From a bacterium (GTDB lineage: Bacteria > Babelota > Babeliae > Babelales > Babelaceae), in assembly GCA_021827715.1 (NCBI GenBank), contig JAKAUO010000019.1, forward strand, positions 3,290-67,289: DNA of 64,000 nucleotides. Direction: 5' to 3'. The notes below the pieces were generated by a model. It was not told where the DNA came from, did not search any database, and saw only the letters and a program-made list of their open reading frames with translations. This document shows positions 45,416-49,779 of the stretch, piece after piece. Made by a program: the position numbers and the translations under genes. How positions within the stretch are numbered: the stretch's first letter is position 1; each line of letters starts with the position of its first letter.

Positions 45416-46645
45416 ATGATAAGACTTATAATTCGACTTGCCTTAGCCCATATTTACCGTGCGACTGGTCAAAAAAATATATCTCTTATGATAAAAATTT
45501 GTTTTGCTGCGCTGACCATAAGCACCTTTTCACTTACTTTAGTGGTGGCTGTTATGAATGGATTCCAGAAAGAAACCGCCAAGAAATTACAAGGAATTCA
45601 TGCAGACATTATCATTAAAGCGCCAGCAGAAGCTTTAGATTATGAAAAACTTATCACGGTTATAAAAAAAGAATTTATCGCTGAGATTCAACAGGCATCT
45701 CCCCAGGCTATCAGCAATGTTATCCTTAAATCTAACAAGCATGACACTCTTTCTCCGTTGAGTGTATGTATCGGCATTGATCCACAACGCGAGAACGAGG
45801 TAACAACTCTTTTTAGCATGTTGAGCTCACCTGAAAATCCATTGCTGCAAATAGCGGGCAATCGGATCCTGATTGGAAAAACTGCAGCTCAAGTATTAGA
45901 TGCCACACCCCAAGAGCCTATAAGCTTGTTATATATCCCTGAAGAACCACAAAAAAGAAAAATTACGCTGGAAGAAACACACGCTGTTATTGGCGGCACG
46001 TTTAGAACAGGAATTGAAGAATTTGATACTGCAGTAGTATTTTGTAATCTCGATTTTTTTAAAAAAACATTTAAAAATAGTGATGTTTCCCAGATAGTTC
46101 TTAAGTGCAAGCCGGGTATAAATCTTGAGCAGTGCGCTCACGCGTTAAAAAAACGCTTTGGGCAACTTGAAGTTTATACCTGGAAAGAGTTATATCCCGC
46201 ACTTGTTTCTGCATTAGCGCTTGAAAAATATGCCGCCTTTATTATTTTAGCACTCTGTGCATTGATTGCAGCAATGAATTGCCTGGCACTTATCTTTATG
46301 TTTATCACCCAGAAAAAAATGGAAATTGTGATACTCAAAACCATGGGCATGCGTGATAAGGATATCAGCTTAATCTTTCTTCTTATCGGCTTTATGATCA
46401 CCTTAGCGTCCACTATATTCGGCATTATTCTTTCTGCAGGTGCCGGATGGTTCTTGCAGCGCTATCCGCTTATTACCTTACCAGATGCCTATTACGTTGA
46501 TCATTTACCGGTTGATTTAGATTTCCCTTTAATACTTGCTGTTTTTTGTACCATGCTTGCCTTAGGGACTTTCGCTTCATACATTCCTTCACGCAGGATA
46601 CATACTTTTTCTATAGCGCATCTTCTTAAATTTGGAGCCGAATGA
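45416..46645 (+). CDS. LolC/LolE-type (FtsX-family) ABC transporter permease
   Basis: N-terminal TM + VMNGFQKE, a MacB-like periplasmic domain, and 3 C-terminal TMs (FtsX fold). Confidence 0.75.
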   Translation: MIRLIIRLALAHIYRATGQKNISLMIKICFAALTISTFSLTLVVAVMNGFQKETAKKLQGIHADIIIKAPAEALDYEKLITVIKKEFIAEIQQASPQAISNVILKSNKHDTLSPLSVCIGIDPQRENEVTTLFSMLSSPENPLLQIAGNRILIGKTAAQVLDATPQEPISLLYIPEEPQKRKITLEETHAVIGGTFRTGIEEFDTAVVFCNLDFFKKTFKNSDVSQIVLKCKPGINLEQCAHALKKRFGQLEVYTWKELYPALVSALALEKYAAFIILALCALIAAMNCLALIFMFITQKKMEIVILKTMGMRDKDISLIFLLIGFMITLASTIFGIILSAGAGWFLQRYPLITLPDAYYVDHLPVDLDFPLILAVFCTMLALGTFASYIPSRRIHTFSIAHLLKFGAE

Positions 46646-47697
46646 TGAAACGCATTCCAATGCTGGACTGGAAGTTAATGAACAAAAGAGTGTTTGTACG
46701 TGCCGATTTGAACACCAAACTTTCAGGAACATCGGTTCCTCACAGTTTAAAATTTAAACGACTACTGCCTACGCTTGCCTATCTTAAAAAAGCTGGGGCG
46801 CAAATCACCCTTGCAACACATATTGATCGGCCTACGCATTTTCAACCCGAATTTTCAACACGACAACTGACCCATTTTTTAAATCAAGAAGGGTTTTCTT
46901 GTCTGTATAGTACCCCAGAAAGTCTTTCAGCTCTTTTAGAACATGAACATGATATTATGCTGCTTGAAAACCTGAGGTTTTACCCAGAAGAAGAGACCAA
47001 TTCTCGAAATTTTGCTCATAAAATAACACAAAAATGTGACTACTTTGTCGAAGATGGCTTTGGTGTGTTAGCGCGCAAGGAAACCTCACACACCCCCGCT
47101 GCCGAGCTTTTCAAGCCAGAAAAAAGATCTATTGGGCTTTTGGTTGCAGAAGAATTGGAACATTTACAGCCCGTGAAAAAAAATCCCAAACAGCCTTATT
47201 TAGTCATGGTTGGCGGCGGAAAAGGTGAAGAAAAAATCAAGACACTGTATCATTTTCTTGATAAAGCTACTCATATTGCGCTTTTGCCGGGGCTTTCGGA
47301 ATTGCCGGAAGCGTATGATTTCATTCAGGACGCGCACAAGCATTCTGTTACCCTTTTGCTCCCTGAAGATTATGTAATGATTGATGATAAAAAAATCAGT
47401 ATTGGCACTCAGACACTAAAACAATGGCGCCCTATTATTCTTTCTATGCAGACCATCATTTACAATGGGTTGATGGGTTTTATCTCAGAACCAGAAACTA
47501 CTGCTATGACGCATGCTTTATTTGAACTTTTTAAGCAAAGTGAAGCTGAAAAAATTATTATTGCCGGGGGCGATACCACCTTTGCTGCACAACAATGGCA
47601 TATCCATGGGGAGAAGATTTTTCTTTCAACAGGCGGCGGCGCCACCTTAAGTTATCTCGCGGGTCAAAAATTGCCCGGGCTTAAGATTGTGACGTAA
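46642..47697 (+). CDS. pgk: phosphoglycerate kinase (short, divergent)
   Basis: VRADLN, ENLRFYPEEE, VGGGKGEEKI, YNGLMGF, AGGDT, STGGGATLSYLAGQKLPG. 351 aa vs about 390-400 typical. ATGA overlap with the preceding gene. Confidence 0.8.
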   Translation: MMKRIPMLDWKLMNKRVFVRADLNTKLSGTSVPHSLKFKRLLPTLAYLKKAGAQITLATHIDRPTHFQPEFSTRQLTHFLNQEGFSCLYSTPESLSALLEHEHDIMLLENLRFYPEEETNSRNFAHKITQKCDYFVEDGFGVLARKETSHTPAAELFKPEKRSIGLLVAEELEHLQPVKKNPKQPYLVMVGGGKGEEKIKTLYHFLDKATHIALLPGLSELPEAYDFIQDAHKHSVTLLLPEDYVMIDDKKISIGTQTLKQWRPIILSMQTIIYNGLMGFISEPETTAMTHALFELFKQSEAEKIIIAGGDTTFAAQQWHIHGEKIFLSTGGGATLSYLAGQKLPGLKIVT

Positions 47698-47833
47698 TGA
47701 ACTAACAACGTACATTATTATAAAATCTCAGCTCGAAGCAACAAATTACAGGTTTGTCGCAACAGAAAAATAATAATTGCGCAACGCGTCTAGAGGGGTA
47801 AAGCAACATGTTCCAATTAAAATTCTATGACAT
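47632..47833 (+). repeat. direct repeat copy A (pgk 3' end plus about 135 nt downstream)
   Basis: Aligns with 48911-49114. The core 47665-47833 vs 48947-49114 differs at about 7 positions by eye. Confidence 0.85.
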
Positions 47834-47895
47834 ATACTTATACGAAAAGGAAGAGTAGTTCGTTTTTTTAAACCTATTACTCAAAAGGAGTGATC

Positions 47896-47955
47896 ATGTT
47901 ACAATGGTCAAAGAATAATTCAACATTTTTAAAAAAAGGCAGCTATTTACTTTGA
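47896..47955 (+). CDS. 19-codon leader ORF with the only strong RBS of the cassette (possible 5' part of a recoded gene)
   Basis: aaggag at 47885-47890, 5 nt before the ATG. Contains A7 run 47931-47937 in A_AAA_AAA register. Confidence 0.3.
   Translation: MLQWSKNNSTFLKKGSYLL
47931..47937 (+). other. A_AAA_AAA heptamer (potential -1 frameshift / poly-A slippage site 1)
   Basis: In the frame of ORF 47896 the codons are tta aaa aaa ggc. The -1 frame is open from here into ORF 47958. Confidence 0.4.
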
Positions 47956-47957
47956 TT

Positions 47958-48089
47958 ATGCATACTATCAGAGCTAAATCGATCGCCATGTATTTTATAG
48001 CATTCTTGTGCTTGAATATATGTGCATCTGAACTTATGATACATGAAAAAGGCCTATTAACATCTGAAAAATTTGATGTAAAAAAATAG
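47958..48089 (+). CDS. 43-codon ORF with a signal-peptide-like segment (middle part of a possible recoded gene)
   Basis: MHTIRAKSIAMYFIAFLCLNICASE.... Ends gta aaa aaa tag, an A7 run immediately followed by a stop codon. Confidence 0.3.
   Translation: MHTIRAKSIAMYFIAFLCLNICASELMIHEKGLLTSEKFDVKK
48080..48086 (+). other. A_AAA_AAA heptamer followed by a TAG stop (potential -1 frameshift / slippage site 2)
   Basis: The -1 frame from 48086 reads IVKSKDDYFILTKHGVHKVHRHDVSQSLRE and runs without a stop into ATG 48176. Confidence 0.4.
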
Positions 48090-48175
48090 TAAAAAGCAAA
48101 GACGACTATTTTATTCTTACCAAACATGGAGTTCATAAGGTTCATAGACATGACGTTTCTCAATCATTAAGAGAA

Positions 48176-48508
48176 ATGAATGACGAACAATTGACCCATT
48201 TCTTGAATGGTAATAATGGCGTTATCAAGGTTTGTCGTTTCGCTAATGGTGAATTCAAGCTTGATAGACATGTTCGTGGAAATGGTGGCGGCGCTATAGG
48301 GGCGGCTGTGGGAGTTGTGGCTGGAACTGCTGTGGTGCAAGGAGTTGCTCATGGAACAATTTGGACAATTGCTGCATGCACCGGCCCATTCGTATTTTTC
48401 GTTGGATATGCACTTGAAGCTGCGTGTGCCCCTGCTATTGCCTCTGCAACTGTATATGCAGCCGCAGTTGGTGGTTTGACTGGCGCAGTTGCAACAGGCC
48501 CCATTTGA
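48176..48508 (+). CDS. Gly/Ala-rich hydrophobic (glycine-zipper, bacteriocin-like) membrane peptide
   Basis: 110 aa. GNGGGAIGAAVGVVAGTAVVQGVAHG...AAAVGGLTGAVATGPI. The reading frame is open upstream to 48075. Confidence 0.55.
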   Translation: MNDEQLTHFLNGNNGVIKVCRFANGEFKLDRHVRGNGGGAIGAAVGVVAGTAVVQGVAHGTIWTIAACTGPFVFFVGYALEAACAPAIASATVYAAAVGGLTGAVATGPI

Positions 48509-48520
48509 TAGGGAAGTACT

Positions 48521-48625
48521 ATGTTTTATTGGTATGAACAAGTGCTACTATCATTTCCTATGGTAGTATTACTATACTTCCTGAAGTTTTATGTCATATT
48601 ACCTTACCTGAGAAATAAAAAATGA
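48521..48625 (+). CDS. 34-aa hydrophobic mini-protein
   Basis: MFYWYEQVLLSFPMVVLLYFLKFYVILPYLRNKK. ggaag 5 nt upstream. The stop overlaps the next ATG (ATGA). Confidence 0.35.
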   Translation: MFYWYEQVLLSFPMVVLLYFLKFYVILPYLRNKK

Positions 48626-48753
48626 CGCAGTTTGAACATAATATGATTGCCGGCGTTATACACATAATTCTTTGGATGTTTGTTTATCAACATCATTTTT
48701 ATGATGAAGAAGAACATCAATGGTGGATGAAATTCTGGAGTAAATTCTTTTAA
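48622..48753 (+). CDS. 43-aa mini-protein with one TM segment
   Basis: MTQFEHNMIAGVIHIILWMFVYQHHFYDEEEHQWWMKFWSKFF. ATGA coupling to the preceding mini-ORF. Confidence 0.35.
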   Translation: MTQFEHNMIAGVIHIILWMFVYQHHFYDEEEHQWWMKFWSKFF

Positions 48754-48910: not shown

Positions 48911-49114
48911 GGAGGCCAATGGACGCTATTTAAGCTACTTGCGGGACAAAAATTGCCCGGGCTTAAGATTGCGACGTAATGAACTAACAACGTACATTAT
49001 TATAAAATCTCAGCTCAAGCAACAAATTACAGGTTTGTCGCAATAGAAAAATAATAATTGCGCAACACGTCTAGAGGGGTAAAGCAACATGCTTCAATTA
49101 AAATTCTATGCCAT
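48911..49114 (+). repeat. direct repeat copy B, including a decayed pgk 3' relic (48911-48979)
   Basis: Encodes GGQWTLFKLLAGQKLPGLKIAT* vs the pgk C-terminus GGGATLSYLAGQKLPGLKIVT*. The downstream 135 nt are near-identical to copy A. Confidence 0.85.
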
Positions 49115-49233
49115 CAGGACTTTGCTCTAATACAATAACCGCCATCTAATCTCTGTTATTTAAAAAATAACCCATGTTTTTTGAAACGATTTTACGATTG
49201 AATCGAATATCTTAATGAATTTATTAGAAATCA

Positions 49234-49741
49234 TCATGTCAAACTCTTGACTGAATCAAATAAAAATGGCTCACTTTTTTTGTCAAAGAAAAACGAATTT
49301 TTCAAAAAATCTGATTTTAACCAGTAACTCTCTACTAGATTGGATCTCTTAGAATCGACCCTATCAATACTTTTATAATATCCAGCATGAGAAACTTTAA
49401 AAACTGATGATCTATTCAAGAAAAACAAAAAGCCTAAAAGTCGCCAGAGCGGTGAAAATGACGACACAATCGCAAAAACATTTCAAAATCACCATAGACC
49501 ATTTTCATATTATAGCGATACAATCAGCTTTATCATGCATTAGTCAAAGTCCTGCTAATATTTCATCTTTCGCTGTTCTACTTGAATCTTTAACTATTGA
49601 TTCAAAGAGCTTTTCATTATCAATCTTAAAAGCAAATGCCGCAGCACTGAAAGTAAAAAGGATATCGCGCGTAAGAGGTCTATAGCGCATTAAATTCATA
49701 AATTTATTATGGTGGATCACCGATCGAGTCGGGGATGACAC
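49234..49741 (-). pseudogene. possible fragmented gene remnant (two out-of-frame ORF pieces)
   Basis: ORFs 49544-49741 and 49234-49467 lie on the same strand in different frames, with no RBS or recognisable domain, in a low-coding-density region next to repeat copy B. Confidence 0.2.
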
Positions 49742-49779
49742 TTTGAAGGTGTCAACGTGCCAAGTTTTGCACTAGGAAA

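Follow-up and report, generated by a model that had tools for sequence, protein, structure and literature searches.

A conserved glycine-zipper gene split at two seven-adenine runs in a Babelaceae genome is probably a recently inactivated copy

Results

Three open reading frames joined at two poly-A runs

The 64,000-nucleotide stretch of DNA analysed here, called the window throughout, is part of contig JAKAUO010000019.1 of a bacterium of the family Babelaceae (assembly GCA_021827715.1). At positions 47896-48508 its forward strand carries three short open reading frames (ORFs) of 19, 45 and 110 codons, separated by two runs of seven adenines (A7). In related genomes the same coding sequence is one uninterrupted gene, here named gene A. 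We consider the segment to be, with fair probability, a recently inactivated copy of gene A that is frameshifted and probably non-functional.

An earlier note, made from the letters of the sequence alone, had described the arrangement, and its ORFs, Shine-Dalgarno (SD) sequence, A7 positions and registers were all reproduced when the sequence was checked directly. The SD sequence AAGGAG is separated from ATG 47896 by a 5-nt spacer. ORF1 runs for 19 codons from this ATG, and its codons 12-14 contain the first A7 run, in the phase tta aaa aaa ggc (site 1). From there the -1 frame stays open through ATG 47958, the start of ORF2. The 3' end of ORF2 reads gta aaa aaa tag and contains the second A7 run (site 2), after which the -1 frame reads IVKSKDDYFILTKHG... 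and continues via ATG 48176, the start of ORF3, to TGA 48506-48508. The same one-base correction is needed at both junctions, as had been claimed: one base added at each A7 gives a joined frame of 204 codons that ends at this TGA.

The absence of a convincing ribosome-binding site at the downstream ATGs, also noted earlier, stands with one qualification. Neither ORF2 nor ORF3 has a good site, and a weak AAGAG lies only 2-3 nt upstream of ATG 48176. The ORF1 stop is placed 2 nt ahead of ATG 47958 (window 47953-47960), and reinitiation after it is a possible way into ORF2.

Homologues read through both junctions

Searched with the joined 204-aa product, the databases returned seven close homologues (E values from 4e-85 to 3e-48), all of them uninterrupted; they cover 100% of the query in five cases and 83-85% in the other two. 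P0001 and P0005 read directly across both junctions, P0001 with the sequences ...TFLKKRQLFTL... and ...GVKKVVKSK.... When 1.84 billion representative proteins were searched with a profile, the family widened to 296 clusters at E<=1e-10. Its members are mostly 170-220 aa long, a few of the listed matches being shorter, and every inspected relative that spans the junctions is a single unbroken ORF.

The locus of P0001, L001, is a syntenic orthologue in a sister genome, with flanking genes at ~89% DNA identity to the window. Both share the order AAA-ATPase, AAA-ATPase, rpiB, FtsX-type permease, pgk, gene A and a small ORF (listed as gene C), followed further on by an EamA transporter gene and, beyond it, dnaA. 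In the DNA alignment, site 1 is TTTTT-A8-G in L001 against A7 in the window; at site 2, L001 has A7-G-TAGTAAAAAGC and the window is one base shorter. L001 encodes FLKKRQLF and VKKVVKSK in one frame. Inspection of an orthologous locus, which the earlier note had proposed as a check, thus finds one uninterrupted ORF that differs by exactly one base per junction. The site-2 residue is Ile, Val or Met in other family members, so that the immediate ancestor of the window may instead have read GTA AAA AAA ATA at this place, with an A8 run.

Comparison with these homologues identifies the three ORFs as pieces of one conserved gene, and their uninterrupted match over the full length agrees with the earlier proposal that the ~204-aa product is the native one. 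It is the homology that settles this point, because A-runs alone are unremarkable in the window, which has 135 A/T runs of at least 7 nt. Together with two small downstream genes, B and C, gene A forms an uncharacterised conserved three-gene cassette, A-B-C, directly after pgk (Table 1).

The comparative data already contradict a reading of the segment as three separate functional small genes of 19, 45 and 110 aa. Public annotations do call the 110-aa ORF and the 43-aa gene C, but the close relatives whose DNA was examined have no matching boundaries, their frame being contiguous, and ORF2 and ORF3 are poorly served for initiation, as described above. Moreover, ORF3 alone would be deprived of the signal peptide and of half of the beta domain of the family, including the invariant residues T76, G79, K82, D87 and L92. 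We find this reading scarcely credible.

Table 1 Features of the gene A locus and of its paralogous counterpart (window coordinates unless a locus is named)
Feature	Position	Strand	Description
Gene A fragment 1	47896..47937	+	Codons 1-14 (MLQWSKNNSTFLKK), original frame; matches the N-termini of P0001, P0002 and P0005
ORF1 remainder	to TGA 47953-47955	+	Read-through out of frame
Site 1, A7 run	47931..47937	+	A8 in the orthologue L001 (TTA AAA AAA AGA)
Gene A fragment 2	47937..48086	+	-1 frame, RQLFTLIMHTIRAKSIAMYFIAFLCLNICASELMIHEKGLLTSEKFDVKK; includes the signal-peptide-like segment
Site 2, A7 run followed directly by TAG	48080..48086	+	L001 has A7+G (GTA AAA AAA GTA GTA)
Gene A fragment 3	48086..48508	+	-2 frame relative to the start; IVKSKDDYF...GNGGG, glycine-zipper C-terminus ...ATGPI, TGA 48506-48508
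Called 110-aa ORF within fragment 3	starts at ATG 48176	+	Public annotation
Gene B	48521..48625	+	34-aa hydrophobic peptide MFYWYEQV..., after gene A in 8/8 loci (window plus seven); omega 0.18 vs L013
Gene C	48622..48753	+	43-aa peptide MTQFEH...FYDEEEHQWWMKFWSKFF; start overlaps the stop of B (ATGA); 8/8 loci
Upstream region and 5' untranslated region of gene A	47736..47895	+	Repeated GCAAC, ...GAGTAGTT.GTTTTTTTAAACC.ATTACTCAA(A)GGAG.GATC, SD AAGGAG at 47885-47890
Left direct-repeat copy, 178 nt	47656..47833	+	Last ~40 nt of pgk and the cassette upstream region; 95-96% identity to the right copy; also in L010
Right direct-repeat copy	48938..49114	+	Remnant of the pgk 3' end and second copy of the upstream region
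Paralogous cassette	L003 6001-6828 (also L004, L005)		A/B/C of 192, 34 and 43 aa, between a class A penicillin-binding protein gene and a peptidase S9 gene

The A7/A7 state is genomic

Homopolymers are classic sites of base-calling error, and both lesions are one-base homopolymer undercounts; the genome could really have A8 at both runs and an intact gene, the split being an artefact of sequencing or assembly. The 1.3-kb cassette, including A7/A7, is 100% identical in the Logan assemblies SRR13205815 (L008) and ERR3200794 (L009), and the L009 contig is present in two further samples. The NCBI metagenome-assembled genome GCA_027318235.1 (L010) has A7/A7 too and differs from the window at 3 positions in 8,056 bp. 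Because these assemblies and that of the window agree, four independent ones in all and drawn from two or more sequencing projects, A7/A7 is a real genomic change, fixed in one near-clonal lineage. The same agreement makes unlikely the alternative that the earlier note had allowed for, namely A8 at both sites under accurate reads. Searches of Joint Genome Institute metagenome contigs, with protein patterns and with a DNA pattern across site 2, found neither an intact A8 allele nor more relatives.

The window as a whole has 38% G+C and is rich in homopolymers. Inside 52 intact long ORFs there are 116 A/T runs of 7-9 nt in frame, of which 83 are sense-strand poly-A (54 A7, 23 A8 and 6 A9), or ~1.6 per gene. 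These in-frame runs form a large frameshift target, yet a single gene in the window is broken.

Each A/T run of at least 6 nt was tested for the joining of ORFs after a shift of +1 or -1. This fusion scan picked out site 2 along with roughly a dozen further runs, at which the gains were typically 30-50 codons; these further gains were judged trivial by position or size, without case-by-case inspection. A genome-wide homopolymer problem was considered and set aside, since the scan gave no other convincingly split gene in the 64-kb window despite the 116 comparable runs. Systematic homopolymer error would affect many genes. One gene is singled out here; therefore neither systematic error nor a genome-wide reliance on slippage fits, and an artefact at the two runs is in our view very unlikely.

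Gene A carries no further damage

The frame of gene A is otherwise well preserved. The joined frame is free of internal stop codons, and every residue that is invariant in the family is still present. The C-terminal module has an omega (ratio of nonsynonymous to synonymous rates) of 0.05-0.15 against L013, L014 and L015, at synonymous divergences (dS) of 0.5-1.5. The N-terminal part has an omega of 0.44 against L001, with ~0.1 for the flanking genes, a value that is not polarised to the window lineage. When the differences were polarised with ten outgroups, two derived amino-acid changes fell on the window lineage, six on the intact L001 lineage, and 16 were ambiguous. By this measure, protein evolution is not accelerated in the frameshifted lineage. 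Genes B and C, downstream, are intact.

These observations weigh against inactivation. The relaxed selection or further lesions that mark a pseudogene are absent, which fits only a very young pseudogene, and a gene still selected in its joined frame fits the same pattern equally well. Three further points lie on the same side. Some slippage product is expected, because both slippery heptamers need the same correction. ATG 47958, where L001 has GTG (Val), could have arisen as a compensatory start for termination-reinitiation. The placement of the intact paralogue P0005, introduced below, in the same genome as gene A is only probable, judged as it is by co-occurrence in the samples and similar G+C.

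The intact orthologue L001, one base longer at each run, is what a pseudogene would be expected to have as its counterpart. Because the gene is otherwise undamaged, the shifts are either very recent or tolerated. Indels at A8 tracts arise far faster than per-site point substitutions, and contractions are favoured among them. Two hits that come with no other damage are therefore unsurprising under neutral decay.

Phase variation would leave a similar picture: at a contingency locus, slipped-strand mispairing in the tracts would toggle the gene, and the sampled population would be OFF/OFF. The product is predicted to be an exported or membrane protein, the sister species has A8 at site 1, A7-A8 tracts are frequent in the family, and the gene is undamaged outside the tracts, all of which would suit such a locus. 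However, no length variant appears in the four assemblies from at least two projects, a weak test as consensus assemblies hide minority variants. With both tracts OFF, two reversions would be needed. The tract positions are unconserved in the family, and runs of A7-A9 are ordinary in this genome, as their number within intact ORFs attests (116). We regard phase variation as quite improbable.

The runs lack the stimulators and the conservation expected of programmed recoding

The earlier note had raised the possibility that the three ORFs are decoded together by -1 frameshifting or by transcriptional slippage on poly-A. Both runs indeed present the slippery register X_XXY_YYZ, as A_AAA_AAA (tta aaa aaa and gta aaa aaa), and a TAG stands directly after site 2. 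The register continues the phase of the parent codons xxA AAA AAA Nxx, and the TAG derives from a former xTA GTA. Neither is evidence of recoding, because both come about automatically once xxA AAA AAA Nxx loses one base.

No stimulatory RNA structure was detected in the 80 nt 3' of each run in comparison with shuffled sequences (z = -0.82 at site 1 and +1.50 at site 2), and the small hairpin after site 1 (-6.6 kcal/mol) is found equally in the in-frame L001. No SD-like stimulator (GGAG or AGGA) is present within ~25 nt upstream of either run. The frameshifted arrangement is not conserved: L001 and 7/7 close homologues are in frame, and the split is seen in one near-clonal lineage only. Nor is there a conserved slippery site, the poly-A tracts of other members being located at different Lys-Lys positions. 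With only 7 A, both runs fall short of the length of about nine or more associated with transcriptional slippage, and neither has the context of a shorter run with a nascent-RNA hairpin.

In Escherichia coli, A_AAA_AAA slips far less readily than A_AAA_AAG (PMC5009743) and, without stimulators, it shifts well below 1%; stimulator-less heptamers reach only 2-10x a background of ~0.05% (PMC4066793). Efficient slippage of RNA polymerase has been reported at 9 or more A/T (PMC5009743), and the slippage tract of tssM is A11 (PMC4256274). Insertions become exponentially more frequent as runs lengthen, and a transcriptome-wide study of Buchnera detected no restored reading frames (PMC5574713). Assuming E. 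coli-like behaviour, two unassisted slips in series would yield ~1e-6 to 1e-4 of normal output.

The split could nevertheless be compensated, a useful full-length protein being made through a -1 shift on A_AAA_AAA or an added A in each run. In a variant of this explanation, reinitiation at ATG 47958 bypasses site 1 and only site 2 is slipped. On this view, the indels would throttle the expression of a protein that could damage membranes. Several features are in keeping with such corrective recoding: both runs are in exact register and call for the same -1 correction, a stop codon comes right after site 2, the ORF1 stop immediately precedes ATG 47958 (GTG in L001), and the start of ORF2 resembles an ordinary family signal peptide. 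The kept invariant residues, the low C-terminal omega, the lack of accelerated evolution and the intact B and C point the same way. The literature documents the concept of 'savior' indels, at which low-level frameshifting is compensatory (PMC5009743).

Against it stand the in-frame orthologue and the seven in-frame homologues, the missing structure and SD (the one hairpin being shared with L001), the weak shiftiness of A_AAA_AAA with its very low serial yield, and runs shorter than those at which polymerases slip efficiently, with no rescue of reading frames across the Buchnera transcriptome. In addition, slippage able to rescue an A7 would also harm the 83 in-frame sense poly-A runs in the genes of the window. 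None of the tests made here supports the recoding mechanism of the earlier note, and we hold compensated decoding to be unlikely. Its most specific form is a shade less likely again: double corrective recoding within one ORF of a Dependentiae-like symbiont, on bare A7 runs or by reinitiation plus slippage, as a trace-level throttle.

A probable course of inactivation

In the reading that we favour, a recently inactivated gene A, the gene has suffered two one-base losses at poly-A: from A8 to A7 at site 1, and from A8 or A7+G to A7 at site 2. The deletions most likely arose through slippage of replication in homopolymer tracts, which is the most frequent source of indels where a genome is A+T-rich. 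ORF1 would still be translated from its strong SD, and ORF2 would be reachable by termination-reinitiation, giving a truncated peptide of 45 aa. The membrane-active C-terminus would not be produced in useful amounts, and the presumable outcome is a loss of function of this copy of gene A. Spontaneous slippage on A7 may give traces of the full-length protein, which would be adventitious rather than programmed.

The three samples in which the window organism occurs also contain an intact paralogous A-B-C cassette (P0005; L003-L005), whose G+C equals that of this organism. In L003 it contains an in-frame A7 at the equivalent of site 1. Such a cassette may make the loss of gene A tolerable.

Comparison with known frameshifted genes

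The kind of event favoured here is already known: a homopolymer frameshift in an A+T-rich genome. As in homopolymer-frameshift pseudogenes of reduced or host-associated genomes, the A-run contractions are of one base and lineage-specific, a paralogue is available, and the neighbourhood is rearranged. Unlike ordinary pseudogenes of this type, gene A shows no secondary decay; it would be unusually young, with two hits.

For genes of Buchnera and Blochmannia frameshifted in poly(A) tracts, rescue by transcriptional slippage has been proposed, as reviewed in PMC5009743. The present case is alike in that the genome is A+T-rich and probably host-associated, a one-base poly-A indel interrupts an otherwise intact gene, and one additional A in the mRNA restores the frame. 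It differs in having only 7 A, two sites per transcript and a single affected gene in the window. In tssM of Citrobacter rodentium and Yersinia, likewise, poly-A comes right before a stop and the missing C-terminus lies in another frame (PMC4256274). However, the A11 of tssM has been conserved in another genus, and function depends on both length variants (PMC4256274), whereas the A7 here is unconserved. The -1 frameshifting of E. coli dnaX and of IS3/IS911 shares the lysine-codon heptamer in X_XXY_YYZ register; dnaX has A_AAA_AAG with an upstream SD and a downstream stem-loop, in contrast to the unconserved A_AAA_AAA without either stimulator at the present locus.

For annotation, the ORFs of 19, 45 and 110 aa are best combined into a single gene marked as frameshifted, instead of standing as individual hypothetical proteins. 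A slippery heptamer with a stop arises automatically when xxA AAA AAA Axx loses one base, and the pattern alone is no proof of programmed frameshifting. If read-through were true, the locus would be a rare case of two compensated indels in one gene. The more interesting by-product is the gene A family with its cassette: an uncharacterised, fairly large family of 296 clusters with a confidently predicted fold that has no match in the libraries searched, two conserved micro-protein partners, a conserved regulatory leader and signs of module exchange. Work on its function in Dependentiae-like bacteria would be reasonable.

The gene A protein family

All 50 aligned members have one architecture, with a short hydrophobic stretch that resembles a signal at the N-terminus, a domain of ~85 aa, a GGG hinge and a Gly/Ala-rich C-terminus. 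The GGG is nearly invariant within VRGxGGG, and the C-terminus ends in ATGP[VI]. The joined product of the window aligns with the family over its full length and has the invariant residues. An AlphaFold2 model computed on the 50-sequence alignment (mean predicted local distance difference test score of 87) places a helix near the N-terminus (residues 9-43), ahead of a beta-rich domain of ~80 aa (47-127) and two long helices, 134-161 and 164-201, predicted to form a glycine-zipper hairpin. Alignment and model together back the outline given in the earlier note, of a signal-peptide-like segment, a small domain and a glycine-zipper C-terminus. No significant match was found in Pfam, NCBIfam, PHROGs or PADLOC, among PDB sequences, or among the folds of the PDB and BFVD. 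Judging by the model, the gene A family may represent an undescribed fold or family.

Several members (P0037, P0092, P0099, P0076 and P0126) are only 133-149 aa long; they start within the beta domain and have no signal peptide. These short members may represent additional split or truncated genes, from other lineages, or artefacts of contig ends.

From the predicted architecture we infer that A would be a Sec-exported protein, anchored or inserted by the glycine-zipper hairpin and acting with the two single-pass micro-proteins B and C. Glycine-zipper membrane proteins and glycine-rich bacteriocins or microcins have GxxxG/A-rich helices after a GG motif, and small hydrophobic partner genes. 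Gene A resembles them in its GxxxG/A-rich C-terminal helices after GG, its small hydrophobic downstream genes and its exchanged C-terminal module. A pore-forming or bacteriocin-like activity is possible for A, although membership of a bacteriocin family failed every test that was run. Gene A differs from bacteriocins by its ~130-aa folded domain and Sec-type signal in place of a GG leader of 15-25 aa. No C39-peptidase ATP-binding cassette exporter adjoins it, no sequence or fold match was found, and B and C do not strictly co-vary with A. A double-glycine-leader bacteriocin or class II microcin was accordingly rejected as an identity for A, given the absence of a family match, the ~130-aa folded region before GGG, and neighbours that are pgk, FtsX-type and EamA genes.

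The A-B-C cassette and its surroundings

Across the eight loci compared (the window and seven others), B is 34-38 aa long (M[WF][FY]..WYEQV...) and C is 43-45 aa long (MT.F.H...FYDEEEHQWW.KFW), with an overlap of the B stop and the C start. The exact sequence of gene C is on record in public collections.

The upstream region is a conserved leader. In all eight loci, repeated GCAAC is followed by ...ATTACTCAAGGAG.GATCATG. In the window, L001, L003, L013, L014, L015 and L019, the leader comprises [T/C]GCAAC repeats (e.g. TTGCGCAAC), a T-run and the invariant ATTACTCAAGGAG..ATCATG. The alignment of these seven upstream regions identifies an AAGGAG-type SD followed by ATG as the usual start of the family. 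The leader may be an operator combined with an element of the 5' untranslated region; it gave no Rfam match at the gathering threshold.

The cassette is flanked by two direct-repeat copies (Table 1), each with part of the pgk 3' end. L001 keeps a shorter and more diverged remnant of this end at the same place, with 58 nt at 79% identity (L001 5776-5833 and 7026-7083). The arrangement suggests an ancient insertion of the cassette into the pgk 3' end, with a replacement gene end brought along. Since L001 has an older remnant at the same place, entry of the cassette would predate the split of the two species. No integrase is present at the cassette.

Identity between the window and L001 falls sharply at the GNGGG codons (~48292) and recovers at ~48788, inside or after gene C, the dissimilar segment being L001 6405-6891 in the orthologue; the C-terminus, B and C of the window closely match those of L013. 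This pattern points to recombination that exchanged the glycine-zipper module along with genes B and C. A polymorphic toxin with a cognate immunity gene, which the pattern had first suggested, was rejected as far as strict pairing is concerned: the type of B/C is not tied to the type of the C-terminus in the eight loci, type-2 B/C occurring with types A, B and D.

The neighbourhood has also been rearranged in the window lineage. The direct repeat is extended there, and a 233-aa gene of L001 is missing, with no remnant of it in the window. The ~650 nt after the right repeat (49115-49770) are unrelated to L001, have no ORF of at least 120 aa and no homologues in a collection of 5.8 billion proteins. 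A second decaying gene in this interval was considered and discarded, the minus-strand ORF fragments at 49115-49770 having neither homologues nor a Pfam match. On the other side of the cassette, pgk (46642-47697) is short, at 351 aa; it is matched by Pfam PGK in two stretches, the best of which covers model positions 3-212 of 379.

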